The notes: generated by a model not told the origin, from the sequence alone. A stretch of 24,196 bases of DNA from an uncultured archaeon (GCA_964373795.1 CAYJVY010000002.1:1-24196); one strand, 5' to 3'; positions 340 through 19,104 are shown, counted from the stretch's first letter. Numbers and translations: made by a program.

Positions 340-538
340 GGTTTTTTGGCGTTTTGAGTAAGAATTTGAGGGTTTTAAGAGTATTTGTTTGTTTTTCTAA
401 AACTAAAGCTTTAAATACTTCATTGGCAGGTATTTATATAGATTACTAATGGACTTTTTTTCTACTAGTAAATGTGTATCTTAAATCTTATTGTGTAGAG
501 CCTAGCAAATAAATGTTGTTTAAAGGTGGTGAAACTGT

Positions 539-1438
539 ATGAGTTGTCCTGCATGTGGAAGTAATAGATTAACCCATGACAATGAAAAAGGAGAAGTTAT
601 TTGTAATAACTGTGGAGAAGTTATTAGTGATGAAATGGTTGACTCTGGAAAGGAATGGCGTTCATTTGATTCAGATCAATTTGATGAAAGATCTAGAACT
701 GGAAGCCCAATGAAGTACGTGAAATTAAATAAAGGGCTTGTAACAATGATTGACAGAAGAGGAACAGATTTAAGGGGAAACAAACTATCAAGCAAGTCTA
801 GAGCTCAAATGTATAGATTAATTAAATGGCATAAAAGAGCAAGCATTTCTAGTTCAATGCAAAGAAATTTATCAATTGCTTTAACTGAGTTGAGGAGAAT
901 TGCTTCTTACTTAAATATTCCTGAAGAACTAATTGAAGCAGCAGCATTGCTTTACAGAAAAACAGTTAAAAAAGGATTAATTAGAGGAAGATTAATTGAA
1001 GCAGTTGTATCTGCTGTTTTGTATACTGTTTGTAGAACTTATAATGTTCCAAGAACTTTAAATGAAATGGCTGAAGCATCTGGTTTAACTAAAAAAGAAA
1101 TTGGAAGAACTTATAGATTCTTAGTAAGAGAATTAAAGTTAGGAGTTCCTTTGACTAATCCAATTCATTATATTCCTAGATTTGCAGCTGAATTAAATTT
1201 GAGTGGAGAAGTTCAGGAAGAAGGAAGAAAGATTCTTGAACAAGCAATCTCTAATGGATTAATTTCTGGAAGAGGTCCAACAGGAGTGGCAGCAGCAGCT
1301 GTTTACATTGCTGGATTGCTTAAAGGAGAAAGAAGAACTCAAAAAGAAGTTGCAAATGTTGCAGGGGTAACAGAAGTAACAATTCGAAACAGATACAGAG
1401 AATTAAAGAAAAGATTGAAAATCGAAGTATCTGCTTAA
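539..1438 (+). CDS. tfb: Transcription initiation factor IIB (TFB)
   Basis: N-terminal Zn-ribbon CPACGS...CNNCG, B-finger/linker, then two cyclin-like repeats (..LRRIASYLNIPEELIEAAALLYRK.., ..IPRFAAELNLSGEVQEEGRKILEQA.., RGPTGVAAAAVYIA). Length of 299 aa is typical. SD GGTGGTGA at 525-532, 6 nt before the ATG. Confidence 0.95.
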   Translation: MSCPACGSNRLTHDNEKGEVICNNCGEVISDEMVDSGKEWRSFDSDQFDERSRTGSPMKYVKLNKGLVTMIDRRGTDLRGNKLSSKSRAQMYRLIKWHKRASISSSMQRNLSIALTELRRIASYLNIPEELIEAAALLYRKTVKKGLIRGRLIEAVVSAVLYTVCRTYNVPRTLNEMAEASGLTKKEIGRTYRFLVRELKLGVPLTNPIHYIPRFAAELNLSGEVQEEGRKILEQAISNGLISGRGPTGVAAAAVYIAGLLKGERRTQKEVANVAGVTEVTIRNRYRELKKRLKIEVSA

Positions 1439-1509: not shown

Positions 1510-1812
1510 ATGGGAAGCTTTATTGAATTAAATGATACTTTGCAAATTACTTCTGAACAAGGATTTCCTTTCAAAGAATTAAATTTAAATAAACATAGAA
1601 AAAAGCCTTTAACTGCAAAGGAATTCGAAGGAAGAGTATTTGAATTTTATGACAAGCCAGGCGCAAGGCTTTACCATCTTTCTCCAACTAGATGTTTTTT
1701 AGTTCACAACATTAAAGGCAAATGGCTTTACTGGGGCAAAATAGTAATATTAGAGCAAACAATTTCTTCGGTAGGCGAAAAGCAAACGAATCCAGGGGAA
1801 AGCTTTTTCTAA
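1510..1812 (+). CDS. Small conserved-looking hypothetical protein (100 aa)
   Basis: Intact ORF with a TATA box at leaderless spacing. Non-repetitive, globular-looking sequence (..GRVFEFYDKPGARLYHLSPTRCFLVHNIKGKWLYWGKIVILEQ..). I do not recognise a family with confidence. Confidence 0.5.
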   Translation: MGSFIELNDTLQITSEQGFPFKELNLNKHRKKPLTAKEFEGRVFEFYDKPGARLYHLSPTRCFLVHNIKGKWLYWGKIVILEQTISSVGEKQTNPGESFF

Positions 1813-1853
1813 CAAACAAAAGGTTTTTATTTTTCCTCTCCATTATTATTGCA

Positions 1854-2153
1854 ATGACTAAAGAAAATCCTTTTAAAGAATTAAAAAGAAGTTGCACTCT
1901 TTGCACTACTTATAAAAATTTTAAACCAGGGCATTCTGAAAAAGAAAGAGAACAAGTCCAAGAATGCTTGAAACAACTAGCAAATCAATTTAATAACAAA
2001 TTCAATGCTTTAAGAAAAGAAGATGCTTCAGGAACAGCAATTAAACAAGCAAAGGAAAGAAAGGCTATTTGTTTGCAAGCATTAGATGTTTGCCAAAAAT
2101 GTGATAAAGAATTTGACAAGGCAAACAGATTTTTAATGGACAACTTTAAATAA
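1854..2153 (+). CDS. Small helical Cys-containing hypothetical protein (99 aa, start re-set to internal ATG)
   Basis: The listed ORF 1722-2153 overlaps the previous gene in another frame and its first 44 codons are junk-like. The ATG at 1854 (MTKENPFKELKRSCTLCTT...) follows T-tracts and an AT-rich box (1826-1836) at leaderless distance. Six Cys include CxxC (C14/C17) and CxxC (C80/C83). Confidence 0.5.
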   Translation: MTKENPFKELKRSCTLCTTYKNFKPGHSEKEREQVQECLKQLANQFNNKFNALRKEDASGTAIKQAKERKAICLQALDVCQKCDKEFDKANRFLMDNFK

Positions 2154-2601: not shown

Positions 2602-3252
2602 ATGCTTATTGCAGGAATTGATGAAGCAGGCAGAGGCCCTTGTATGGGCCCTTTATGTATTTCAGTTGTCTTAATTAAAAAAACTCAAGAAGAAAAATTA
2701 ATTAGTTTAGGATTAAAGGATTCAAAGCTTTTAACTGAAAGCCAAAGAGAAAATTTTTATCCCCAAATTCAATCAGTTGCTCAGGCATATTCTTTTATCA
2801 AAATTCATCCAAAGGAATTAGATGAATTAATGACTTGGAAATCGTTAAACGAAATTGAGGCAATGAAAATCGGGCAACTGTTAAACGAATTAAAAGAAAA
2901 ACCTTCAACAATTTTTGTTGACTCGCCCGATCCAATTGCAGAAGAATTTGCAAACAGAATTAAAAAATACATTTCTTTTTCAACTCACATTATTGCCGAA
3001 CACAAAGCAGACTTTAATTATCCAATTGTAAGTGCGGCATCAATTATTGCAAAAGTTGAAAGAGATAAAGAAATCAAAAAAATTGCAGAAAAATTTGGAG
3101 ACATTGGATCAGGATATTCAAGCGATCCAAAAACAATTTCATTTATTGAAAAATATTTAGAGGAAAACAATAAATTGCCCGAATTTGTGAGAAACAATTG
3201 GGAAACAAATAAACGAATTTTAGACAACAAATTCCAACAAAAATTATTTTAA
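2602..3252 (+). CDS. rnhB: Ribonuclease HII
   Basis: IAGIDEAGRGPCMGPL catalytic motif, DSKLLTESQRE, EHKADFNYPIVSAASIIAKVERD, GSGYSSDPKT. Length is the archaeal type-2 RNase H size (216 aa). Confidence 0.92.
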   Translation: MLIAGIDEAGRGPCMGPLCISVVLIKKTQEEKLISLGLKDSKLLTESQRENFYPQIQSVAQAYSFIKIHPKELDELMTWKSLNEIEAMKIGQLLNELKEKPSTIFVDSPDPIAEEFANRIKKYISFSTHIIAEHKADFNYPIVSAASIIAKVERDKEIKKIAEKFGDIGSGYSSDPKTISFIEKYLEENNKLPEFVRNNWETNKRILDNKFQQKLF

Positions 3253-3275
3253 ATATTTGCAGTGTAAATAATTTA

Positions 3276-3731
3276 ATGACTAAAAAAAATAATGTAATTG
3301 AGTTTGAATTCGATTTAGATCAATTAGAAGGATTATTCGAAGAAATATTATGCGAAATACTTGAATCAGAAGAAGAGTTAAATCAACCAATAACTTTGGG
3401 GTTTACAATTAAAATAGTTGATGGCAAAAAATCAAATATTAAAAGAATTGATTTTGAAAGAGTTAAAGAAGAACCAAATCCACTAATTAATGTTGTAGAG
3501 CAAAAAACCAATGTGGAGGTAACAATTGATTTAGCAGGAATTAATGATAAAAAAATCGATTACGGAGTTTATAGAAACAAGTTTTTTGTTAAAATCAATT
3601 CCTTAAATTTTTATAAAGAGTTTCTCTTCAATAAAATGTTAAACAGACAAATAAGGAGAAAAATAAAAAATAATATACTTATTTTGTCTTTTACTAAAAA
3701 AAACAGTCAAACAAATGTAAACAAAAACTAA
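3276..3731 (+). CDS. Hypothetical protein with possible Hsp20/alpha-crystallin-like C-terminal domain
   Basis: PLINVVEQKTNVEVTIDLAGINDKKIDYGVYRNKFFVKINS...IKNNILILSFTKK resembles the ACD pattern (P.vDv.E....v.v.vdlPGv.kedI.v.v..n.L.I ... NGvL.i.l.K). The similarity is weak and judged by eye. A TATA-like TTTTAAATATTT (3247-3258) overlaps the rnhB stop, about 24 nt before the ATG. Confidence 0.4.
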   Translation: MTKKNNVIEFEFDLDQLEGLFEEILCEILESEEELNQPITLGFTIKIVDGKKSNIKRIDFERVKEEPNPLINVVEQKTNVEVTIDLAGINDKKIDYGVYRNKFFVKINSLNFYKEFLFNKMLNRQIRRKIKNNILILSFTKKNSQTNVNKN

Positions 3732-4460
3732 TTATTTTTTGAAGTAAATTATTAAAATAACTGTTAAAGCAATTAATGAAATCAGTATTAAATTATTTTC
3801 CGGAACAGTTATTGGCTTTTTTTCTCTTGCAATAGTAAAACTAGTTGAAGCAACATTATTGAATAAATTGTCAAGCGAATTTGAATCGGATAAATTTTGT
3901 AATTCAGCTATTGCTTGATAGCTTTTCCCTTCTGAAAAAACAGGAGAAGCAATTGAATATGTTTGAGTTTCTTGAATGGAAGTATTTGCTGCAACGCTTA
4001 TAAATTTTGTTTGCCTTGAACCTTGAACTTCGGTTTTAGTTGCAGAATCAATTAAATAGAAAACTATTTTTTGACTTGAAATATTTTTGCTTGAAAAATT
4101 ATTTATAGTTGTTTGCAAGCTTACACTTGAAGGCAATCCCGAAGAATTTGGAAGAAAAGCAATATTAGGAGTTGCAGTAATTTTTGTTAAACCCCATACA
4201 TCAACTATTTTTAAAAACCCGCAAACTTCAGGGAATTTATCTAAGCAAATAACTAATGGATTTAAGCATCCGCCTACAGACAACTCTATCTTGAAATTAT
4301 TTGAGTCAAGTTTTTCTTTTCCCCCAGTATCAGCACAAATATATCCAATAAAATTATTTCCAGAACCAATTGGATCTAAAGTATAAGTTAATTGGGAAAA
4401 GACTGATTGAATGAAAAAAAGCAAGGCAAACAAGACAATTAAATAATTGAATTCCTTCAT
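3732..4460 (-). CDS. Exported protein with signal peptide and C-terminal transmembrane anchor
   Basis: N-terminus MKEFNYLIVLFALLFFIQSVFSQ is signal-peptide-like. The C-terminus ...PENNLILISLIALTVILIIYFKK is a hydrophobic helix plus basic tail. Four Cys in the N-terminal half and several N-x-S/T sequons. Last gene of the 8421->3732 cluster. Confidence 0.7.
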   Translation of the reverse strand: MKEFNYLIVLFALLFFIQSVFSQLTYTLDPIGSGNNFIGYICADTGGKEKLDSNNFKIELSVGGCLNPLVICLDKFPEVCGFLKIVDVWGLTKITATPNIAFLPNSSGLPSSVSLQTTINNFSSKNISSQKIVFYLIDSATKTEVQGSRQTKFISVAANTSIQETQTYSIASPVFSEGKSYQAIAELQNLSDSNSLDNLFNNVASTSFTIAREKKPITVPENNLILISLIALTVILIIYFKK

Positions 4461-4475
4461 TTTGTTTCACTTTAA

Positions 4476-4787
4476 TTACTTAATTACTATAGGAGTTATT
4501 CTATAAAAACCTATCAGTTTTTCTTGATTTAAATCAATTAATGCAGTGTAGTTTCCTTTTTCAGTGAAAAAATTTATTTGAATAAAATCTTTTTCTGGGA
4601 GATTTTTAATTAGGGAATCGTTTGAATTTCTCACTTCAGTTTTTGAAATGAATTTAAATTCTTTTTTAACTGATGAATTGAAGTCAAGTTTTTTTAAGTC
4701 TTGGCTTTGAAGTGCAATTAATTCAAGTTTTTGCTTTACTTCGTCAGTAAAAGTGAACTCAGTTTTTTGAAGATTAGTTGAAGACAT
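4476..4787 (-). CDS. Small hypothetical protein; reading frame probably extends to 4967 to include an N-terminal TM helix (see findings)
   Basis: ORF as listed (ATG at 4787). The same frame stays open for 60 more codons upstream, encoding IKPIRLILILIVLILISFNAFFIF..., but with no ATG/GTG/TTG. Confidence 0.6.
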   Translation of the reverse strand: MSSTNLQKTEFTFTDEVKQKLELIALQSQDLKKLDFNSSVKKEFKFISKTEVRNSNDSLIKNLPEKDFIQINFFTEKGNYTALIDLNQEKLIGFYRITPIVIK

Positions 4788-4977
4788 TTGCTTTGTTTGA
4801 GAATTAATTTCATTTGAAGATGCAGTCGTGTTTTCAAATTTACTTGATTCAAGTATATTTGAATCAACATTGTCTTGAGAATTGTTGAAGGAATTGAAAA
4901 TAAAAAATGCATTAAAAGAAATTAGTATTAAAACTATTAAAATTAAAATTAATCTAATTGGTTTAATTTAATTCACC

Positions 4978-7900
4978 TTAAGAGGTAAATTGGATTTGAA
5001 TTGATTCAGTTATGGAGCCTTTTTTTATTGAGACTTTTATTTTATGGCTTGCTCCGGGAACTAGTTTGCATGTCTCGCCTGTTCCAGGGCCTCCAATTGC
5101 ATAATTTATTTGTCCATTATTGATTTCTTTTCCAGTTGTTTTACATCCTTCTTCTCCTTTACTTGAATCTAAATCAATTACTTCTGCATCAAAAGAACCA
5201 TTATCTAATGGCTTATTTGGAGTGACTGTTTTGTCAACTATAAATCCATTTAATGGAATAACTGTATTCAGAGAAGAAGCTGTTAATGGAATCCCTCCTC
5301 CATAGGGGCAGTCAGGGTGTTGGTCAACTATTGGAACTGCACCTTGATCTATTGCTCCTTGAAATGCTTCTGTTACTCCACTTACTTGGCTTTGAGTATG
5401 TAAAGTAATTGATTTTCCTTCAACTTGAAGGCCATCTCTTGCATCAAATTTACAACTCCAAATCTCTATTGGCTGAGAATTAGTTGCTTTTGCATCAAAG
5501 TAAGCTGATTTAATTATTGAAGGATATTGAGGGTCGTCATTGCTTATATAAATTGAAGGAGTATCGTTTAAACTTGAAATAGATCTATTCAAGTTATTTG
5601 CGTTTTTTGTTCCTTCAATGTAAATTGATTGAATTGCATTATTTGGATTAGATGTTTTAGGCAAACCTCGATTAATAATTATTTGTCTTTGAGTATTTGT
5701 TGCTCCAATTAAAACTAGTTGGGAATTTTTTAAATAAAGATGATCCTTTAAATTAATTCTTCCATTAATTCTTGAAATCCAGCTATTAGTTAATTCAAGC
5801 ACTTCCCCTGAAATGTTTTTAATTTCATTCCCTGAATCGCTTACATTTGGATTAATTGAGGATTCGTTTTTTAATTCAAGTTTTTTAAATTTTAATTCAG
5901 CTGGACCAAAATTTTGAATAGTTGAATTATCTAATGAAATAACTCCATTTAAGTCAGTGAAATTAGTTGAAGCATTATTCATGAACTGAATAGTTGAATC
6001 ACTTAAATAAATATTGTTAGAAGATTTTAATTCATCAATTCTTCCATTTACGCCAGTAAAACTTATTTTGTTTAAAGAAATATCTCCTGCAGTGGATTCA
6101 ATTTTAAATGTTGCTTCAGGAGAAGTTATTTCGCTTGTTGCAAGGTTAGTGAAAACAATTGATTTAGCTGTAATGCTTGGAATTAAGCTTGCATCTCCAA
6201 AAAACACAGTTGCTAAATTGTTTCCAGTGAAAGCAATTGAACCATTTGAAGCAGTAATTGCTCCTTTAACTGTTCTTACTTGTCCAAGATTTTCAGAGTC
6301 ATTCCAAAAAGCAGGAGGACTAGCATTGTGAACTGAAATGTTTCCATTTAAAGCAGTAATGCCTGTAATTCCAGTTGAATTGTCCCCATCAATTCTAGAA
6401 TTAGATACAGTAATATTTTGAGCAACAGTAATTGCTCCTTTCAAGTTTCGCAATCCTCTTTTAGAGTCTTTAACAGTTAAAGATCCAATTGAAACATTAA
6501 TGTCTCCCGCTCCATTAATTGCTCCATTATCTTCTTCTCCTAAAAATACTCCAGTAACATTTAATCCATCTGTTCCTTCAACTTTTATTGCAATAGGGTT
6601 TGAAAACTTTAAAGTTGAATCAACTAAACTAGTTTTTCCTAAAACAATGAATTCTGAATCAGGAATGGTTTCAAAATGCATGTCATAAATCATTGAAGAA
6701 TTCACGATTAAATTTCCTGAAGTTGAAAGTTTTCTAACTCCTCTTAAGACAGCACTATTTAGAGTAATGTTTGAAGGCTTTGCTGCTTGATTTCCTGCAG
6801 TAGTTTTATCAAAATCAGGCATTGAAAGCTCGTAAAATCCTTTATCTCCAAATTTTCCTCCTTCAAATTTTAGTTCTCCATTAGTTGCAAGTCTTAAAGG
6901 CTTGAGGGAAGTGATTAACCAATTATTTGAAGGCCCTTGACCTTTGAAAGAAATTCCTTTTCCAGGAGCAGTTGCAGTAATCTCAAAATTCTCTGTTGCA
7001 TTGCCTCCTAGATTTAAAATCATTGGAGAATTAAATGTTCCAGCATTAGAGTTATCAAAAACAATTTCACCTGACTTGGATTTAATGAAATCAATTCCTG
7101 ATGAAGCATCACCGCTAAGCAATGCATTGAATACTTTAATATCTTTTTCAACTATTACTGGCCCTCCTTTAATGTTTAAAATTCCACTAGAAGGCTGATA
7201 TGCAGGCTGATAAGAAGGTGAAGCCTCTCCAATTAACAATGCTCCTGCAAGTACATTAACTGTTTCAGGAGAATTAATGGTTGAAATATTAAGTAAAGAA
7301 AGTCCAGTTGCTCCTCTAACAAACACTGGTTTTGGAGTAGTAAAAGACAATCCAGAAGAATTAAAGGAAAGATTTCCTGAAACATCAAGATTAGTTGTTA
7401 ATCCTAAAACATTACTTGAAGTCGCTGAAAAATTTCCTCCAATTAACACAGGCCCAGAAGAAGAAACATTAGTGAAAAGACCTGAATTCAAAGTCAAATC
7501 CCCTACAACATTAAAGTCCTTAAAAGTCCGATCAAAATTTGATGAAGAAATATTTGCTGAGCCAACTTGAAATACCCCTTCTCCTCCTGAAACAAATCCA
7601 ATAGTTGAACCAGTAGAAGTTAAAACTCCATTTACATGAATTCCTTCTTTTGGAGAAGCATTCACAATTTTACTGTAATTCATGTTTCCAAAAACAGCAT
7701 TAGTCAAAGTAGCATTTCCACTCACATTTAATATATATGCTCCATCAATTGAAAATCTGTTGTCACGATAAGAGTCTTGAACTCCAGTAATTGATGCATT
7801 TCCTTGAACAGTTATTGGCCCTGATTGATAGAAATGAATTTTTGATTTCTCCATATCTAAATTGCCTTTAACAATTATTTCAGGAGATCCAATGCCAAGC

Positions 7901-8421
7901 CATTTCAAGTAATCGATTGCAGCAGAGTCTCGCATAATTAAATCTTTATCTATTACAATTTTTTCAAATCTATGAAGAGAACCATATGGTCCAAAAGAAC
8001 TTCCAGGATCTGAACGAGCGCCTCGCAAAGTTAAAGTCCCGGGTAACAAGAAATCGCATTGACTTTGAGTTACTCCAATTGAGCAATAAATTCTGGAATT
8101 AGTTGTTTCAACATTCCAAGGAATTAAAATACTTGAATCGCTTCGCTTAAAATCTCCTCGAACATCTAAGTCAACGTTATTTAAAACCCATTTCACTTCA
8201 GTTAGCTGAGGAAAATCAGCTCTTGCTTTTACTTGCTGCCAATGATTATCAAAACTAGTGGAGTCTAAAAAAATTCCAGCAGTATTATTAATAGTGCAAA
8301 TAAAAACATTGTTCACTACGCTTGCATCATCGCATACAACGTATTGTTTATTTGCTGCAGCTGAAGCAAGTGAAATTAAAAGCAGTGAAAAAAATGCAAT
8401 TAAAAGAATTTTAAAATTCAT
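4978..8421 (-). CDS. Giant secreted beta-helix-like, N/S/T/G-rich surface protein (about 1147 aa from the ATG at 8421)
   Basis: The ATG at 8421 starts MNFKILLIAFFSLLLISLASAAA (signal peptide). The listed start at 8469 is a TTG, and a TATA box lies inside that extension. The body has degenerate approximately 20-25 aa units such as VSGNATLTNAVFGN, VVGDLTLNSGLFTN, VSGNLSFNSSGLSF, KGAITVAQNITVSNS, KGAITASNGSIAFTGN, typical of parallel beta-helix adhesin-like proteins. No C-terminal hydrophobic anchor. Confidence 0.8.
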   Translation of the reverse strand: MNFKILLIAFFSLLLISLASAAANKQYVVCDDASVVNNVFICTINNTAGIFLDSTSFDNHWQQVKARADFPQLTEVKWVLNNVDLDVRGDFKRSDSSILIPWNVETTNSRIYCSIGVTQSQCDFLLPGTLTLRGARSDPGSSFGPYGSLHRFEKIVIDKDLIMRDSAAIDYLKWLGIGSPEIIVKGNLDMEKSKIHFYQSGPITVQGNASITGVQDSYRDNRFSIDGAYILNVSGNATLTNAVFGNMNYSKIVNASPKEGIHVNGVLTSTGSTIGFVSGGEGVFQVGSANISSSNFDRTFKDFNVVGDLTLNSGLFTNVSSSGPVLIGGNFSATSSNVLGLTTNLDVSGNLSFNSSGLSFTTPKPVFVRGATGLSLLNISTINSPETVNVLAGALLIGEASPSYQPAYQPSSGILNIKGGPVIVEKDIKVFNALLSGDASSGIDFIKSKSGEIVFDNSNAGTFNSPMILNLGGNATENFEITATAPGKGISFKGQGPSNNWLITSLKPLRLATNGELKFEGGKFGDKGFYELSMPDFDKTTAGNQAAKPSNITLNSAVLRGVRKLSTSGNLIVNSSMIYDMHFETIPDSEFIVLGKTSLVDSTLKFSNPIAIKVEGTDGLNVTGVFLGEEDNGAINGAGDINVSIGSLTVKDSKRGLRNLKGAITVAQNITVSNSRIDGDNSTGITGITALNGNISVHNASPPAFWNDSENLGQVRTVKGAITASNGSIAFTGNNLATVFFGDASLIPSITAKSIVFTNLATSEITSPEATFKIESTAGDISLNKISFTGVNGRIDELKSSNNIYLSDSTIQFMNNASTNFTDLNGVISLDNSTIQNFGPAELKFKKLELKNESSINPNVSDSGNEIKNISGEVLELTNSWISRINGRINLKDHLYLKNSQLVLIGATNTQRQIIINRGLPKTSNPNNAIQSIYIEGTKNANNLNRSISSLNDTPSIYISNDDPQYPSIIKSAYFDAKATNSQPIEIWSCKFDARDGLQVEGKSITLHTQSQVSGVTEAFQGAIDQGAVPIVDQHPDCPYGGGIPLTASSLNTVIPLNGFIVDKTVTPNKPLDNGSFDAEVIDLDSSKGEEGCKTTGKEINNGQINYAIGGPGTGETCKLVPGASHKIKVSIKKGSITESIQIQFTS

Positions 8422-8448
8422 TAACCTTCCCCAGAGTTCATTAAAATT

Positions 8449-8460
8449 TCTATATAAATC
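8449..8460 (-). promoter_or_regulatory. TATA box candidate for the surface-protein cluster
   Basis: The minus strand reads GATTTATATAGA, centred about 33 nt upstream of the ATG at 8421. It lies inside the TTG-extended version of the ORF, which argues for the 8421 start. Confidence 0.45.
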
Positions 8461-8567
8461 CAAATGCAATTAATTTATATCATTATATATTTAATATATT
8501 TAAAACTAACGATTACAAGTATTAATGAACTCTTTTACATAAATAGTTGAATAATTTAAGTGATTGA

Positions 8568-8915
8568 ATGAAATCAGAATGGGATTTAAATAAAATTGCA
8601 ATTGCAATAATTGCATTAATTGTAATTTTGTTAATTGCATACTTTGTTTTTTTAACTCCAAAAGACAAGCAAGAAAAAAATAACATATTAAATGATAACA
8701 CTCAAGATAAAAACACTGAAACTGATTCAAAAAATACTTCAACAAATTCTACTAATGAAAGTAAAACAAAAATAGAGTCAAAGGATAAAAACCTTGAAGG
8801 AACAACTGTTTTACTGCCTGAGCTGCCAAAACAACCAGAAAAAATCATTACACCTGAAAACGTTAAAGAACCAGAATTAGGAAAAGACTCTGAAACAAAA
8901 CAACCTGCAAGGTAA
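8568..8915 (+). CDS. Small membrane-anchored protein with low-complexity K/N/T/E-rich tail
   Basis: N-terminal TM helix IAIAIIALIVILLIAYFVFL followed by a polar, probably disordered tail. The overlapping minus-strand ORF 8506-8745 looks like low-complexity noise. Confidence 0.55.
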   Translation: MKSEWDLNKIAIAIIALIVILLIAYFVFLTPKDKQEKNNILNDNTQDKNTETDSKNTSTNSTNESKTKIESKDKNLEGTTVLLPELPKQPEKIITPENVKEPELGKDSETKQPAR

Positions 8916-13017: not shown

Positions 13018-16000
13018 TTAATTCTTGGGTTTTTTAGTTTTTAATTCAAGAACTTTTTTTGAAGAAAATAAAAACCATGTAACCATTAAAACAAGCAATA
13101 CTATTGCAATAAAGTAAACAACTTGTGTTTCATCCAACCCTCCTTTTTTTATTGGTTCTTTTAACGGCTTTAAACATTTTCCATCAATACATAATAAGTT
13201 TTCTCCACAAGAAGTATTATCAGCAATTTTTTCAAATTCACATAAACCTGTTTTAGGATTACAAAAACTTGTAAGGCAAGAATTTTCCGAAGAACAAGAA
13301 ACATTTTCACACAAATCTTTAATTGCCTCTTGTTTTTCTTTTAAATTCAATAACATTGTGCTGGGAAGTGAATTAAATTGCTCTAAAGAAATATTTTTTG
13401 CAACAGAATAATTAATGTCAACAGATTTATTTACATCAACATTTGTTAATACAAATTTAATTATTGGATCCGCTTTAACGATTTCAAACCTTGTTTTACT
13501 TGAAACCTCATTTGCATTTAATGCAATTGTTTTAGGAATTTCTTCAATTAATTCAAGTCTTTCAATCAATTTATTTGAATTATTTTTTACTGTAATAGTT
13601 AAAACCGATGAAAAAGATATATTTTTGTCAACAGTTTTTTTTGTAACGTTAATTGATTTGTCAATTGAAACAAGTTTGTTAAATTCTTTTATTTCATTTA
13701 ATTTTGAATTTAATTCTGTTTCAGGGAGATTCAAAACATTTGCCAGCAATTCCTTTGAATTAATTTCATTAAATTCTTGTTTGGATTTTTGCTCTAAAAC
13801 TGTTTGAATCACTGGTTCAACATTGAGTCCTTTATTTTTATCCGAGATTTCTGTTGTTCCACCACTAACGCCCCCAGTTGTCACACCTCCACTAACAATA
13901 CCTCCTCCTGAAGGAGGAGATCCTCCTTGAGTTGGAGGCTGAGTTGAAAGCTTTACTTGGAATTGAATTGCATTTGAATCAGTCATTGAATTTCCAAATC
14001 CATCTTCACAGCTTACATAAAAAGTGTTAATGCCTTCAACTGCCAGTATATTAGTCAAATGATTTTTTGTTCCCTCACCATTTTCAAATTGTTTTATCAT
14101 AGAATTATAATCAGTTGAAGTCAAAGAATGCCTGCAAAAAGCATTTTCATTTGTTGAAGCAGTTAAGGTTACAGTTAAAGAGGTTTGATCGTTGTTCGGC
14201 CCAATTGAAATAATTTTTGGAGCATTCAAGTCTTGAATCACTAATCCGAAGTCACTAAAAGAATTCACGTCAACAAATGCAAATTCTTCATTTAAGTCAA
14301 CTCCAAAGCTATTGCCGTCAACTGAATACTCGGATGGATGCATCCAATAATTTAAATCAGAATTCCATTTAAAGATTAAAAAGTTTTCTGGAATGAAATC
14401 ACTACTAAAATTTAAGTCATTAAAGTAAACCTTTACTCTAATTTTTTCAAGTTTTTGAAGAGTATTGAAATTAGATGAAAGCGAAACAAATTTATCTGCA
14501 CTTTTTGTCTTCGGAGTTTTAACTGCATCTTTTACTTTACTTGTTTTTGGAGGGTTAAAATCATAGATAGTTGCATCTATAACTCCATTTGATAAATTTT
14601 CTTTGGCAAAAAAATCAAATCCAATGCCTAAACTTGATTTAATTATTTTATGAATTTTTCCTTTTTCAATAGAAATATTTTCATCTTTAGAAGAATTATT
14701 TGAAGGAATGACTGCAAAACTTAAAACATTTTTTAACTCAGTTTTTCTTTCCTTTTTAGTTGAAGCAATAATGTCAATAAAGTAAAGCCCTTTCTTCAAA
14801 TCATTTGAAGAAATTCTTGCAGCAAAAACATTTTGATCATTAAGAGTTAATGGAATTGATTTAATTCCTTTTTTCTTTTCTTCTTCTAAACTAATTAATG
14901 CATCAACATTTGTAATGCCATGAATTGATTCCACTTCGACTTGTAAATTAATTGTTTCACCTATTTTTGCAAATCTTTTATCAATTGAAAAAGATTTAAT
15001 TATGGGAATAATTTGTAAAAACGCGTAAACGGTTTTAATTGATTCAGTGTTGCCTGCTAAATCAATTGAATAAAATTTAATTAAATGATTTCCATCTTCA
15101 TTAATTAAAACTCTTGATCCGGATTTAAAGTTTTCATCAACTCCTTCAATCAAGTAATAAGTTTTATTTATTCCAGACAAATTATCTAGTGCATTTAATT
15201 GAACAAAATATGGAGAAAATTGAGGCGCTAAAGGAATTAATGCAGTTGTAATAGGCGCGTTAAAGTCAAGCTTTAATTCTTTTGACTTAATTGATTCAGT
15301 GTTATCCTCATTGTCAACTGAATAATATTTAATTAAATGAATTCCTTCTCTGGATACAGAAAAGGAATTTCCGTCAACCCAGTTTGCATCGTTTAATTTA
15401 TAGAAAGTATTTTTTACTCCTGTTCCAGAATCAGTTGCAGTTAAAACAACATTAAAACCATAATTAATGAATTCACTTGGAATGTTGTCATTAGTTATTG
15501 GAGGACTAAAGTCAAATGAAAGATTTAAGTCCTGAACTTTCTCAGAATTTCCTGCGCGATCAATTGAATAAAATTTAATTGATTTTTTTCCTTCACCACT
15601 TAAAACAACTCTGTTTAAGTCAACAAAGTTTTCATTAACTCCTTCAACCAATGCATAAGTGGCTTTCACTCCAGACAAATTATCTGTTGCATTAAAGTCC
15701 AGCCAAACTGTTTTAGCATTAACGTCTTGAGAAATCTTGTAAGTAGTTACTGGTTTAGTCCAATCAAGTTTAACTTGTTTAGTTTTTGGTTGCTCTTTAT
15801 GGCCTACCCCATCAACAGCGTAAAAACTGAAGTTATAGATTCCTTCATTTTTAAAATAATAAGTTCTAGTCCATTTATCAAATTTAACCCAATTTCCGTC
15901 ATCAATTTTATAGTAAAGATCTTTAATTCCAGTAGCAGTATCTCGAGGACTTAAAGTAACTGTGAAAGCAGAATTTACAAACCCTAAAGGAATATTATCA

Positions 16001-19000
16001 CTTGTATAAGGAGGAGAAAAATCGTAAACCACATTTACATCTTTTACTTTTTCAATGTTTCCAGCATTATCAGTGGAATAATATTCAAGTAAATGAGTTC
16101 CCTCTGATTCAATGAGTATTTTTGTTCCTTTTTTGAAACTATTTTTATCAGGATACCTGTTTAAATTGTAAAAAGTTTCTTTTACTCCTGAAAAATTATC
16201 TAAAGGAATTAAGTCAATGTTTAAAGCGGTTTCTTGAAATTGTTTTGGAGCATTATCAGTTGTTTGCGGAGGAGTATTATCTGATTTAAAAGTCATTAAA
16301 TCTTGTGCAGAGTTATTTAATGCATCAAATGCAACTGCTTTAAACGAATGATTTGAATCGGATACAAGGGTTGAATTAAAATCAAATTCATATAAATTTG
16401 TTTCAACATTAAATTTATCTTGCCCGATTTGTCCAACAAGTTTGCCATCAACAAAGAAATCAATTGATTCAATCCAAGAATCTTCATCGTCCGCATCAAT
16501 GCTTATTTTTTCAATTCCTTGAATGAATTCTTTTTTAATTGGCTTAATTGAAATTTTTGGAGGCTCTTTATCATTTGTGGGCGGAAGTCTCTTGAGTTTT
16601 TGACTTCCTGAAAGAGTTTCCCCAAAAGAGTTCGCAGTAAACTTAACATTTAATTCATTCAATTTCTTAATTGAGCCTTTTAAAGTCCATTGAATTGTTT
16701 TAGATTCATTTGGGTTGATTGAAGAGATCACTTGATTTTTGTCGCCATTAATTAATTCAAATCCTTGTGGAACACTAATTGAAACAACTGCATTTGAAAC
16801 AAAAAGATCCCCTTTATTTGAAAGAACTGCATTAACTAGGATTTGGTTTTTCTTTTCCTCGCTGCTTTCAACAGCCAAATTCAAGTCAGGCCCTAATAAA
16901 GGAATTAACTCTTGAGAAGCCGCTAAAGAAAATTTTTCAAAATTTTCATCAGGCGGACTAAAATTTTTATCAAACGCTTTAACTTTAATTAAAAATTCTC
17001 CTGAAGAATTTGATTCAACTTGTTCAACATTATCTAATCTACTAGTAGAAGAAGAAATTTCCTGACCATTTGAAAAATTAAATAAATATAAATCTAAATC
17101 ATTTAAAGGATAATAAATAGATGGAAACTGTGATCCAGAATAAATAATGTGTCTATTCCAAACAAGAGTTGCTTTATCTCCTAAATTAAAATTTGTTTTA
17201 TAAAACTTGAATTCATTTTTTAACACTTTACTTGAAAAAACAAAATTTTTTTCAAAAAAAGCTTTATTCAAATCAATATAACCCCAACCATAATGAGGAT
17301 CCCAACCCCTGGTTCCAAAATCCTCTGCAGAATTAATTAATAATGCTTTAACTTCATTTGGATTTAAACCAATGTCAGTTAAAATTGTTGCCGCTCCTGA
17401 AACATGAGGAGCAGCCATTGAAGTTCCACTAGCACTTTTCCATAAATTTCCTTGTTCCCAAAAAGCGTTAGCAGAAGTAATATTACTTCCAGGTGCAACA
17501 ATGTCTGGTTTTTTTCTTCCATCAACAGTTGTTCCTCTACTACTAAAATATGAAACAATATCATCAGCTCTATTAACTGTTCCCCTGTCATCCATGGATC
17601 CAACAGTGATTACATTATAAGCATCTCCAGGAGTACCAATTGTTTTCAATCCAGAACCAGAATTTCCAGCAGCAAAAACCAATACAACATTAAAATTATC
17701 TGTTAAGGCATCCATAAAACGAGTTGACCCTGATTCACCATTTGCATTACAAAGCGAGCAACCCCAAGAATTATTTAAAACATCTGCAGGAGTTTGCAAT
17801 TCAATTACAGCCCAACTTAATACCCTCATTGAATCAGAAAAACTTCCAGACCCAGTTTTACTCAAAAATTTTGCATTAATTAAATGCTTAACTCCTCTTG
17901 CAATTCCTCCATAAACATTATCAACTCCTGCAGAAATTCCAGTTACATGGGTTCCATGAAAATGCAAGTCATCAACAGTTGTATCAGATGAAAACTCTTT
18001 TTGATCAAAAACCCTTAGAATTCCTGAAATATTTTTTTCAATAGCAGGATGAGTTATATCAATTCCAGTATCAACAATTCCTAAATCTGCTTCTCCTCCA
18101 AGCAAATTAGCGTCAATCCATGTACGCAATTTAATTGAATCAGTAGAAGTTGAAAGCAAGGGATTAACTTCCTCAAAAGGCATAAGGTTTTCTTGAAGCA
18201 ATAAATAATTTTTTTGATTAAACAAATTATACAAGCTAGTTAACTGAGGTATTTGCAAACTTAAAAAATTAACGAAAACTTTTTGAAAATTATATTGAAT
18301 CCTTCCAAGAGAAGACCCTAAATCAACATTTTTTGGAACAGAAAAAATTTCTTCATTAGTGGAAATTGAAGCAATTAATTCAGTTTCAGATAATTCATCT
18401 AATTTATTTAATGGGATTTCGATTATTAATATATTCAATAAATTTTCTTGTTGTAAAATCGTTCCACCATTTTGTTGAACAAAATCAATAACACCATTAC
18501 TTTGTTGCTGTCTTATATCAAAAGATTTTTGAATTATTTCTTTTTTAATTGAATCTCTTAATTCATCAAGTTCTTGCTGGTCTTTTTTTAATTTAGTCAT
18601 CTCAGCTTCAGATAAAGTATTAAGCTTCTCTGAAGAAATTAATAAATTATTTCCAGTTTTAGGAAGTATTTCATCTGTTATTTCCTTAATTTCATTTTTT
18701 TTACTAATCAATTGATTTTCAAAATTTTCTTGAACTTCTTTTGAAATAACACTAACATTTTGATCTCTTAAAAAAAGAATCACTTGAATGACTTCAGTCG
18801 AATCAGGATTCGTATTAAATTTTTCAAGTAAATAACTGTCAAGTTTTAAATTTAAATTAGTCAATTCATTTGGCAAATTTTTTGACTCTTCATTTAAAAT
18901 TTCCTCAGCTGAATTAAAATCATTTCCTTTTTCATCAATTAAAATAATTTCTCCTGAATAGGTATTTTTATCAATTAAATATTCTTGTTGAGTTAAAGGG

Positions 19001-19104
19001 CTTACAAAGGCTTCCTGTTCGCTAGCAAAAGAATTATCCAAAAATGTTAAGAAAAAAAATAAAACAAGAAACTTTGCCAGCAACATTTTTTTTACATTAC
19101 ACAT
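13018..19104 (-). CDS. Giant membrane-anchored subtilisin-like serine protease (peptidase S8) with multiple beta-sandwich domains
   Basis: Signal peptide MLLAKFLVLFFFLTFLDNSFA. Catalytic triad motifs: GIVDTGID (Asp codon 18070-18072), HGTHVTG (His 17956-17958), SGTSMAAPHVSG (Ser 17419-17421). Downstream: a CARDB-like segment, an Ig-like segment, five ~83-aa repeats, Gly-rich hinge GGSPPSGGGIVSGGVTTGGVSGG (about 13855-13945), Cys-rich module (13174-13311) and TM helix VVYFIAIVLLVLMVTWFLF with a basic tail. Confidence 0.9.
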   Translation of the reverse strand: MCNVKKMLLAKFLVLFFFLTFLDNSFASEQEAFVSPLTQQEYLIDKNTYSGEIILIDEKGNDFNSAEEILNEESKNLPNELTNLNLKLDSYLLEKFNTNPDSTEVIQVILFLRDQNVSVISKEVQENFENQLISKKNEIKEITDEILPKTGNNLLISSEKLNTLSEAEMTKLKKDQQELDELRDSIKKEIIQKSFDIRQQQSNGVIDFVQQNGGTILQQENLLNILIIEIPLNKLDELSETELIASISTNEEIFSVPKNVDLGSSLGRIQYNFQKVFVNFLSLQIPQLTSLYNLFNQKNYLLLQENLMPFEEVNPLLSTSTDSIKLRTWIDANLLGGEADLGIVDTGIDITHPAIEKNISGILRVFDQKEFSSDTTVDDLHFHGTHVTGISAGVDNVYGGIARGVKHLINAKFLSKTGSGSFSDSMRVLSWAVIELQTPADVLNNSWGCSLCNANGESGSTRFMDALTDNFNVVLVFAAGNSGSGLKTIGTPGDAYNVITVGSMDDRGTVNRADDIVSYFSSRGTTVDGRKKPDIVAPGSNITSANAFWEQGNLWKSASGTSMAAPHVSGAATILTDIGLNPNEVKALLINSAEDFGTRGWDPHYGWGYIDLNKAFFEKNFVFSSKVLKNEFKFYKTNFNLGDKATLVWNRHIIYSGSQFPSIYYPLNDLDLYLFNFSNGQEISSSTSRLDNVEQVESNSSGEFLIKVKAFDKNFSPPDENFEKFSLAASQELIPLLGPDLNLAVESSEEKKNQILVNAVLSNKGDLFVSNAVVSISVPQGFELINGDKNQVISSINPNESKTIQWTLKGSIKKLNELNVKFTANSFGETLSGSQKLKRLPPTNDKEPPKISIKPIKKEFIQGIEKISIDADDEDSWIESIDFFVDGKLVGQIGQDKFNVETNLYEFDFNSTLVSDSNHSFKAVAFDALNNSAQDLMTFKSDNTPPQTTDNAPKQFQETALNIDLIPLDNFSGVKETFYNLNRYPDKNSFKKGTKILIESEGTHLLEYYSTDNAGNIEKVKDVNVVYDFSPPYTSDNIPLGFVNSAFTVTLSPRDTATGIKDLYYKIDDGNWVKFDKWTRTYYFKNEGIYNFSFYAVDGVGHKEQPKTKQVKLDWTKPVTTYKISQDVNAKTVWLDFNATDNLSGVKATYALVEGVNENFVDLNRVVLSGEGKKSIKFYSIDRAGNSEKVQDLNLSFDFSPPITNDNIPSEFINYGFNVVLTATDSGTGVKNTFYKLNDANWVDGNSFSVSREGIHLIKYYSVDNEDNTESIKSKELKLDFNAPITTALIPLAPQFSPYFVQLNALDNLSGINKTYYLIEGVDENFKSGSRVLINEDGNHLIKFYSIDLAGNTESIKTVYAFLQIIPIIKSFSIDKRFAKIGETINLQVEVESIHGITNVDALISLEEEKKKGIKSIPLTLNDQNVFAARISSNDLKKGLYFIDIIASTKKERKTELKNVLSFAVIPSNNSSKDENISIEKGKIHKIIKSSLGIGFDFFAKENLSNGVIDATIYDFNPPKTSKVKDAVKTPKTKSADKFVSLSSNFNTLQKLEKIRVKVYFNDLNFSSDFIPENFLIFKWNSDLNYWMHPSEYSVDGNSFGVDLNEEFAFVDVNSFSDFGLVIQDLNAPKIISIGPNNDQTSLTVTLTASTNENAFCRHSLTSTDYNSMIKQFENGEGTKNHLTNILAVEGINTFYVSCEDGFGNSMTDSNAIQFQVKLSTQPPTQGGSPPSGGGIVSGGVTTGGVSGGTTEISDKNKGLNVEPVIQTVLEQKSKQEFNEINSKELLANVLNLPETELNSKLNEIKEFNKLVSIDKSINVTKKTVDKNISFSSVLTITVKNNSNKLIERLELIEEIPKTIALNANEVSSKTRFEIVKADPIIKFVLTNVDVNKSVDINYSVAKNISLEQFNSLPSTMLLNLKEKQEAIKDLCENVSCSSENSCLTSFCNPKTGLCEFEKIADNTSCGENLLCIDGKCLKPLKEPIKKGGLDETQVVYFIAIVLLVLMVTWFLFSSKKVLELKTKKPKN
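15020..16280 (-). repeat. Five tandem ~83-aa beta-sandwich repeats inside the S8 protease gene
   Basis: Each unit begins D(N/F/W)(T/S/N)(P/K/A)P.T and contains D..SG(V/I)K.T(F/Y)Y and EG.H.(I/L).(Y/F)YS.D.AGN.E..K. For example, DFSPPYTSDNIPLGF.. vs DFSPPITNDNIPSEF.., and ATDNLSGVKATYALVEGVNENF vs ALDNLSGINKTYYLIEGVDENF. Confidence 0.7.

Follow-up and report, generated by a model that had tools for sequence, protein, structure and literature searches.

How is a secreted archaeal protein of well over a thousand residues, devoid of any membrane anchor, held at the surface of the cell that exports it? The question is raised by three consecutive open reading frames (ORFs) on the minus strand between positions 3732 and 8469 of a 24,196-nt stretch of DNA from an uncultured archaeon (GCA_964373795.1, CAYJVY010000002.1:1-24196; this whole stretch is referred to as the window). 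The first gene encodes the anchorless giant protein and is followed by a small middle gene and a third gene, g3, both predicted to encode membrane-anchored proteins. The original prediction, made from the sequence alone, had proposed that the two anchored proteins tether or assemble a giant beta-helix protein on the cell surface. The reading that we tentatively favor is that the trio forms a lineage-restricted, fast-evolving surface complex of Iainarchaeota, in which the giant would be docked through its C-terminal part on the anchored partners.

Gene order and export signals of the trio

The genes and the signals that surround them are the following:

4978..8421, minus strand: giant gene, encoding a 1147-aa protein predicted to be secreted and without a membrane anchor
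4476..4967, minus strand: middle gene, 163 codons from ATT 4967, encoding a predicted type II (N-in) membrane protein
3732..4460, minus strand: g3, encoding a predicted 242-aa type I membrane protein
8451..8458, minus strand: putative archaeal TATA box TTTATATA, 30 nt upstream of the giant ATG
4973..4977, minus strand: Shine-Dalgarno (SD) core GGTGA, 5 nt upstream of ATT 4967, within the 10-nt spacer
4467..4470, minus strand: partial SD motif GTGA, 6 nt upstream of the g3 ATG
3696..3703, minus strand: T8 tract, 29 nt beyond the g3 stop and overlapped by the 3' end of a convergent Hsp20-like gene

The giant ORF as listed extends from 4978 to 8469 and begins with a TTG; we adopted ATG 8421 as the start because the TATA box sits between TTG 8469 and this ATG, and the 30 nt that separate the box from the ATG imply a leaderless or very short-leader mRNA. 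The TATA consensus TTTAWATA occurs 23 times in the whole window, compared with 14 ± 3.2 expected occurrences, and no TATA motif is present inside the 10- and 15-nt intra-operon spacers. Several of the TTTAWATA matches lie 20-100 nt upstream of the starts of other genes, including 3248-3255 (Hsp20-like gene) and 2540-2547 (RNase HII gene). The first spacer separates the TAA stop of the giant from ATT 4967 (10 nt, or 190 nt if the middle gene is begun at ATG 4787), and the second separates the middle-gene stop from the g3 ATG at 4460 (15 nt). The T8 tract, which is read directly, is a possible archaeal oligo-T terminator of the operon; a scan for sigma-70 promoters and intrinsic terminators revealed no enrichment, these being bacterial models that are irrelevant to archaea. 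All coordinates, spacers, and other figures previously given for this three-gene minus-strand layout proved correct.

The export signals are equally consistent with the original description (signal-peptide and transmembrane (TM) calls are based on hydropathy, charge distribution, and conservation in homologues). The sole hydrophobic segment of the giant spans aa 5-23 (peak 2.55) and ends in ASA followed by AA, as expected of a protein with a signal peptide and no membrane anchor, and an AlphaFold2 (AF2) model places a helix at aa 3-22, coinciding with this region. The middle protein was said to carry an N-terminal TM helix, and a strong helix is indeed found at aa 6-24, provided that translation begins at ATT 4967. 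Similarly, hydropathy recovers both the signal peptide and the C-terminal TM anchor of g3, a topology that is kept in its homologues. An independent Logan assembly yields an identical giant protein, and a second assembly carries an identical sequence at the middle-gene region.

Homologues and conservation of the trio

Relatives of the trio are extremely rare. All three proteins form singleton clusters at 90% identity among about 15 billion proteins, and neither the giant nor g3 retrieved anything other than itself in word-indexed homology searches. When the giant was compared with 1.84 billion representative proteins in a full HMMER scan, two fragments, P0004 and P0005, were all that emerged. 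The former (329 aa, 27% identity to the giant over 316 aa) is encoded on a 4.6-kb metagenome contig, L002, of which L086 and L087 are longer or shorter copies of the same lineage. In this lineage, the giant is followed by genes for proteins of 115 and 224 aa and then by convergent Hsp20, RNase HII, TFB, and ribosomal protein S8e genes. A profile built from two g3 sequences matched only the protein of the L002 lineage and that of a new lineage, L085 (NCBI assembly GCA_964387215.1), in which a giant fragment is followed by genes for proteins of 111 and 227 aa, Hsp20, and RNase HII. The homologous contigs end inside the giant gene and thus do not cover its upstream neighbors.

The trio is therefore found in identical order in three Iainarchaeota lineages, and the genes of the homologous trios overlap by 29 and 4 nt or are spaced by 5 nt, which supports the earlier proposal that the three genes form one operon unit and would be co-transcribed. 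The exported topology of all three proteins is likewise retained in the homologues.

The second fragment, P0005 (65 aa; 47% identity to the giant over the last 63 aa), originates from a 789-bp ENA contig with a G+C content of 61% (L084). Here, a giant-type C-terminal domain (398-667, plus strand) is followed, 2 nt past its stop, by a GTG-started ORF with an N-terminal TM helix. This contig is probably a chimeric assembly; since the giant-type domain is itself high in G+C, a relative of the giant module exists outside the low-G+C Iainarchaeota. Positions 1-411 of the same contig (minus strand) hold part of the interior of a bacterial Tex-like gene, recognized by eye through its helix-hairpin-helix region.

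Comparison between lineages indicates that the trio is evolving faster than its neighbor genes, as judged from pairwise identities. Between L085 and L086, identity is 84% for RNase HII and 89% for Hsp20, and 67% for the giant, 67% for g3, and 37.5% over 24 aa for the middle protein. Between the window and L086, the corresponding values are 83.5% for TFB, 51% for RNase HII, 31% for Hsp20, 26% for g3, and 27% for the giant C-terminal module, and the middle proteins cannot be aligned by BLASTP. What is conserved is modular, namely, the last 280 aa of the giant, mainly the four-cysteine N-terminal module of g3, and the last ~27 aa of the middle protein.

The giant protein

The giant can be divided into the following segments:

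8353..8421, minus strand: aa 1-23, predicted Sec-type signal peptide MNFKILLIAFFSLLLISLASA, followed by AA (hydropathy and A-S-A motif)
5821..8352, minus strand: aa 24-867, lineage-specific body rich in N, S, G, and T, with many short predicted beta strands
4981..5820, minus strand: aa 868-1147, conserved C-terminal module with four conserved cysteines
4981-5259, minus strand: aa 1055-1147, terminal domain of ~93 aa, modeled by AF2 as a beta-sandwich (predicted local distance difference test (pLDDT) 70-77)

Conservation of the giant is confined to its C-terminal module, which is 27% identical to that of P0004/L086 and 25% identical to that of L085 over ~315 aa. Consistently, hhalign comparison of the giant with its homologues aligns only aa 868-1147 (probability 98%), and the body (aa 24-867) shows no similarity to the L085 and L086 giants. 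In L086, the 420 residues upstream of the module are cysteine-rich and unrelated to the window giant. A weak second copy of the module lies upstream of the terminal one in L085 (1-480) and L086 (490-970), as detected by blastp (E 0.002) and by a second hhalign match (P 0.006). The mature giant contains 32 N-X-S/T sequons, compared with 18.9 ± 3.7 in shuffled sequences, an enrichment typical of archaeal surface glycoproteins.

The fold of the body had been described as a giant beta-helix, a label that we consider plausible and unproven because the AF2 model is of low confidence, the Foldseek matches are non-significant, and no periodicity is apparent. The model, based on a three-sequence alignment, has a mean pLDDT of 51 and predicts strands of 3-6 residues every 7-9 residues within the body, with pLDDT values of 60-79 at aa 550-900. 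Foldseek comparison of this model with the PDB produced nothing at E ≤ 0.001; the best matches, none of them significant, were the autotransporter beta-helix passengers Hbp (1wxr), Hap (3syj), and IgA1 protease (3h09), with E-values of 0.006-0.15 and TM-scores of about 0.1 over 900-1150 columns. Against BFVD, the best match was an uncharacterized cyanophage protein, for which an E-value of 2.9e-5 is accompanied by a TM-score of 0.18. The motif G[NDA]h[STN]h occurs 11 times in the giant, compared with 0.7 times expected, at a spacing of 20-37 residues, although it was picked after viewing the sequence. Neither autocorrelation analysis, which detected no periodicity, nor self-blastp (E ≤ 10), which produced no off-diagonal match, revealed internal repeats, and the giant matched no Pfam family at E ≤ 1 and no NCBIfam, beta-helix profiles such as PF13229 and PbH1 repeats included. 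Thus, the short regular strands and the autotransporter-like top matches stand in favor of a beta-solenoid or beta-helix body, and the low pLDDT, the lack of significant matches, and the lack of periodicity stand against it.

None of the three proteins could be assigned to a nameable family, as originally stated. Pfam, NCBIfam, and PHROG searches with the whole proteins, their homologues, and isolated domains produced nothing above the cut-offs, and sequence and profile searches of the PDB with the trio proteins returned no match. PepSY-like and CARDB-like readings of the small domains were discarded, being unsupported by any profile match.

The middle gene and its start codon

The middle protein as extended from ATT 4967 comprises two recognizable parts:

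4896-4952, minus strand: aa 6-24, predicted TM helix (hydropathy), present in the ATT-extended form only
4479-4700, minus strand: conserved C-terminal domain of ~70 aa, defined by alignment with homologues

Begun at its first ATG (4787), the middle gene would encode a protein of 103 aa without a TM helix. The 180-nt extension upstream of this codon contains no in-frame stop (P = 0.0045 in shuffles), compared with 6 and 9 stops in the other frames, and it is considered to be still coding because its 60 open codons encode a TM helix. The extended form is further supported by the homologues, since all three homologous middle genes have an ATG or GTG start that is followed by a TM helix. This N-terminal topology is kept without sequence identity; the sole recognizable homology resides in the last 27 aa, which are 41% identical to those of the L085 counterpart (E 2e-6). 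The window protein additionally contains a 48-residue polar insert, which is a gap in the alignment of the homologues, and ATG 4787 falls within it.

The start region itself reads GTG AAT TAA ATT AAA CCA, with GTG 4976 in frame and the TAA at 4968-4970, and closely parallels the start region of L084 (670-687), GTG AAA GAG ATC AAA ACA, over window positions 4965-4976. Three possible explanations present themselves. AUU 4967 may serve as the start, being located at an ideal distance from GGUGA; the spacing between GGTGA and ATT 4967 equals the SD-spacer geometry of the Pyrococcus abyssi aEF1A start, which is quoted as GGAGGUGAUUUAAAUG (PMC6237735). Alternatively, the GTG may open a two-codon mini-ORF, after which termination would be followed by reinitiation at the middle gene. 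Finally, the start of the middle gene may have been recently inactivated.

The anchored protein g3

The following segments are distinguished in g3:

aa 1-22, minus strand: predicted signal peptide, an N-terminal signal-like segment in hydropathy
4176-4361, minus strand: aa 34-95, four-cysteine module with the densest invariant residues
3816-4175, minus strand: aa 96-215, all-beta domain in a low-confidence AF2 model
3735-3806, minus strand: tail consisting of a V-P-E-N-N motif, a predicted TM helix (aa 222-240, hydropathy), and KK

Unlike the giant, g3 can be aligned with its L086 and L085 homologues from end to end (26-29% identity, E about 1e-22). The residues invariant in the three orthologues are C42, C65, C72, C80, and V219-x-E221-x-N223. 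A single-sequence AF2 model (pLDDT 42) predicts an all-beta region between two helices and is unusable for fold searches. Isolated g3 domains matched no Pfam family of the CARDB or Ig-like type above the cut-off; the best isolated-domain match was Mannosidase_ig for the L085 g3 (E 0.0056, 17.6 bits compared with a cut-off of 23.4). A CARDB-like "D..NN.A..FTV" ending of the g3 domain was recognized by eye, without profile support.

The C-terminal tail resembles archaeal sorting signals below the level of significance. The window g3 matches the PEF-CTERM model TIGR03024 with 14.7 bits (cut-off 23, E 0.028) and Loki-CTERM with 8.7 bits, and the tail of the L002 g3 has a sub-threshold match to the tail of a PEP-CTERM protein (E 0.035). 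The three orthologues carry VPENNL, VPETNP, and VAEINP (the last in L085) at this position, such that V-x-E-x-N is invariant and the proline is variable.

Docking of the giant and competing explanations

In the docked complex that we favor, the giant would be transcribed from the TATA box ~30 nt upstream of its start as a leaderless or short-leader mRNA, judging from the geometry of the box, which is read directly, and the middle gene and g3 would be translated via the SD sites in the 10- and 15-nt spacers. The giant is predicted to be exported by Sec and to be released from the membrane upon cleavage of its signal peptide. It would then be retained by non-covalent docking of its disulfide-containing module (aa 868-1147), as the conservation of this module suggests. 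The main candidate for the docking site is the four-cysteine N-terminal module of g3, the part of this protein that is most conserved and predicted to be membrane-distal; g3 would play a SlaB-like role for a SlaA-like giant, and the type II middle protein may act as a third subunit or an assembly factor. The sequon-rich and probably beta-solenoid body would project outward as a diversifying contact surface and could serve as an adhesin, a spike, or a canopy-like coat. The case for tethering of the giant by the anchored proteins is suggestive, and the patchy distribution of the trio and the lineage-specific outer body lead us to favor an accessory contact or recognition function over that of a core S-layer. 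Host attachment or cell-to-cell contact, for which the original prediction had named such surface proteins as candidates, may be a role of the complex.

Several observations weigh against this reading. Confidence is low for the AF2 models of g3 (pLDDT 42) and of the giant (pLDDT 51), and g3 lacks a long stalk, its TM helix following the beta domain after only ~10 residues. The window middle gene has no canonical start, GTG 4976 being cut off by the TAA, and may be weakly expressed or decaying. The interaction between the giant and its partners, as well as co-transcription of the genes, are what we infer from the arrangement and conservation of the locus. At least five relatives that are equally close (L004, L010, L013, L014, and L018) also lack the trio at the syntenic slot; their TFB is at least as near to that of the window (84-92% identity) as the TFB of L002 (83.5%), and their slot after Hsp20 is occupied by a ScpB-like gene. 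Elsewhere, too, homologues are scarce: the giant has none detectable in the 1.84 billion representatives beyond the two fragments, the C-terminal alignment, used to scan metagenomes, led back to the L002 contig only, and phmmer detected no trio homologue in 80 loci fetched via RNase HII from genome contigs, where ScpB-like and other genes occupy the slot after Hsp20. Because the trio is missing from its slot in at least five close Iainarchaeota, we regard it as an accessory cassette, patchily distributed and not a core envelope component of the phylum.

The same distribution bears on whether the trio could be the two-component S-layer of the organism, analogous to SlaA/SlaB, with the giant as the canopy, g3 as the anchor, and the middle protein as an accessory. 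The architecture fits slaA-slaB, the large, anchorless, sequon-rich, and beta-rich subunit being more variable than the anchored one, and similarity between S-layer proteins is known to become undetectable above the genus level (bioRxiv 10.1101/2023.10.27.564410). We nevertheless consider an S-layer unlikely, given its patchiness at the syntenic slot among close relatives, the lack of relatives among 1.84 billion representatives beyond the two fragments, the absence of a coiled-coil stalk from g3, a damaged or non-canonical middle-gene start, and a predicted secondary structure that looks solenoid-like, unlike the Ig-domain arrays of known archaeal S-layer proteins. Conversely, the three proteins might act independently after export and have no more than a transcript in common, in which case the giant would not bind the two small proteins and would be a soluble or loose exoprotein, perhaps a free adhesin or a beta-helix enzyme that acts on polysaccharides. 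Glycan lyases and hydrolases are numerous among beta-helix proteins, the top Foldseek matches, non-significant as they are, comprise beta-helix passengers of secreted proteins as well as proteins resembling phage fibres or spikes, and contact between the giant and its partners is something that we infer. Yet gene order and tight coupling survive divergence to about 26% identity, a C-terminal domain paired with a small TM ORF is seen even in the distant high-G+C fragment L084, conservation does not extend to the presumed catalytic body, and no catalytic family was matched in Pfam or NCBIfam, so that this explanation, too, strikes us as an unlikely one.

Two narrower alternatives concern the individual partners. 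The g3 protein could be an archaeosortase substrate of the PEF-, PEP-, or VPXXXP-CTERM-like type, in which case its helix would be cleaved off and replaced by a lipid anchor. Its tail, with V-P-E-N-N, a TM helix, and KK, has the corresponding layout, the window and L002 tails yield sub-threshold PEF-CTERM and PEP-CTERM matches, respectively, and V-x-E-x-N is invariant in the three orthologues. We hold this to be very improbable, however, because the score of 14.7 is below the curated cut-off of 23, the motif proline varies (VAEINP in L085), the ORFs of the 24-kb window include neither an archaeosortase nor an exosortase gene, and the other anchored giant of the window, an S8 protease, lacks the motif. 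Decay of the operon, with a middle gene that has lost its start codon and a system that is non-functional in this genome, would be compatible with the position of the first canonical start, ATG 4787, within the 48-residue insert, where initiation would remove the TM anchor, and with the succession of GTG 4976, AAT, TAA, and ATT, which resembles a stop-interrupted start when compared with GTG AAA GAG ATC AAA in L084. Against decay, the 60 codons past ATT are open (P = 0.0045) and still encode a TM helix, GGTGA is at the ideal distance of 5 nt from ATT, the giant and g3 are intact, and the second assembly shows the same sequence; we deem it the least probable of the explanations considered here. 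A more far-reaching version of the docked complex would make the trio an undescribed archaeal surface-fibre system, in which g3 and the middle protein serve as dedicated anchors that receive the conserved C-terminal module of the giant, the two anchors diverge fast outside small conserved modules, the N-terminal solenoid is swapped or diversified between lineages, like the receptor-binding proteins of phage fibres, the whole serving some Iainarchaeota to recognize a host or partner, and the middle subunit is translated from AUU or by termination-reinitiation after a two-codon mini-ORF. Taken jointly, these propositions appear rather improbable.

Organism and genomic neighborhood

The GTDB representatives do not include the genome from which the window originates. 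For RNase HII (55-62% identity) and TFB (84-92%), the nearest sequences belong to metagenome-assembled genomes (MAGs) of Candidatus Iainarchaeum, Diapherotrites, and Micrarchaeota, and the initial guess of a DPANN-like host is right in that the closest sequences of both proteins are from such Iainarchaeum-type MAGs. The G+C content of the window is 29% and ranges from 24% to 35% in 1-kb sliding windows. The genes flanking the trio encode TFB, RNase HII, S-adenosylhomocysteine hydrolase, adenylate kinase, Trm5/Tyw2, DUF63 and DUF357 proteins, and a TP_methylase-family protein, which is probably a diphthine synthase. A viral or mobile-element origin of the trio was considered and rejected: searches of viral contigs and GenBank phages gave nothing, and the housekeeping flanks also argue against it.

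The remaining genes in the vicinity are as follows:

1510-1812 and 1722-2153, plus strand: two overlapping ORFs between TFB and RNase HII, without a Pfam match
3276-3731, plus strand: diverged Hsp20-like gene, matching the archaeal Hsp20 NCBIfam below the cut-off (E 1.4e-9), without a Pfam match
8568-8915, plus strand: gene for a 115-aa protein, divergent from the giant, with a predicted N-terminal TM helix and a K/E/T/P-rich low-complexity tail
13018-19104, minus strand: gene for a second giant surface protein of 2028 aa, unrelated to the trio

In L002 and L086, TFB and RNase HII are only ~30 nt apart. The stop codon of the Hsp20-like gene directly abuts that of g3, with zero intergenic bases, and its K-rich tail overlaps the putative oligo-T terminator of the operon. 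An apparent similarity between the 115-aa protein and the middle protein (E 5e-6 without composition correction) was rejected as reflecting a shared TM helix and low complexity, not homology. Besides a predicted signal peptide and a cysteine-rich region, the 2028-aa protein carries a subtilase S8 domain (aa 341-608) and five OmpL47-type beta-barrel domains, and its C-terminus consists of a TM helix and a basic tail.

Comparison with known systems

Large orphan secreted proteins are common in DPANN genomes, and the present finding is accordingly useful more than surprising. We know of no envelope or host-contact proteins described for Iainarchaeota (Diapherotrites), for which no phylum-specific literature search was made. 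The locus represents a defined candidate, namely, a conserved three-gene cassette with a variable outer body on a conserved putative docking module and two predicted membrane anchors. It adds three new orphan families, restricted to three or four lineages among about 15 billion proteins, and its middle gene is a possible case of archaeal initiation at a codon other than AUG, GUG, or UUG.

The closest parallel among DPANN archaea is provided by the cultivated Nanobdella aerobiophila, for which, in the passages covered, a SlaA-like anchorless protein, SlaB-like anchored candidates, and pectin-lyase-like surface proteins of 908-1320 aa with a proposed role at the surface or in symbiosis are described (bioRxiv 10.1101/2023.10.27.564410). 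Like the giant, these Nanobdella proteins, of 900-1300 aa, have signal peptides and many sequons, and their folds are recognizable by structure prediction only; homology between them and the giant was not shown, and a conserved three-gene cassette with dedicated anchors is not described in those passages. The giant also recalls the passengers of bacterial autotransporters and two-partner secretion systems (Hbp, Hap, and IgA1 protease), which are long, secreted, beta-rich rods, with the reservation that the underlying matches are non-significant. Unlike autotransporters, however, it has no beta-barrel translocator and faces no outer membrane, and its conserved part is a predicted C-terminal beta-sandwich and not a translocation unit. 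The tail of g3, in turn, is built like the sorting signals of archaeosortase and exosortase substrates, with a P-E motif, a TM helix, and a basic cluster, at a sub-threshold score.

The closest described system is the S-layer of Sulfolobus. Its SlaA subunit is an anchorless, beta-rich protein with a signal peptide and 31 sequons and is more variable than SlaB. The latter combines a signal peptide and beta-sandwich domains with a TM helix at the C-terminus, and it may hold SlaA by the D6 domains in the C-terminal part of SlaA, which faces the anchor (PMC10903991). The trio resembles this pair in that a large, anchorless, sequon-rich subunit is encoded beside a smaller one with a predicted beta-sandwich and a C-terminal TM helix, and this architecture, which is kept in the homologues, is apparent from the hydropathy-based topology and from the g3 ectodomain, modeled by AF2 as all-beta with low confidence. 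Homology to SlaA or SlaB was not detected for the giant or g3: there is no Pfam or NCBIfam match, and comparison with PDB sequences, among which the SlaA cryo-EM model of PMC10903991 should be represented, returned nothing below E 0.2. The differences are also considerable. In contrast to SlaB, g3 is half the size and has no coiled-coil stalk of ~130 residues; the giant looks solenoid-like, judging from its low-confidence model, whereas SlaA is a multi-domain Ig-like protein; an extra gene for a small, predicted type II membrane protein is inserted between those for the large and the anchored subunits; and the trio is patchy even within Iainarchaeota. The three orphan families of the trio probably form a variant of this known type of archaeal surface assembly, and if the proposed tethering is true, the Sulfolobales scheme of an "anchorless canopy plus anchored stalk" would extend to a DPANN lineage via unrelated proteins.

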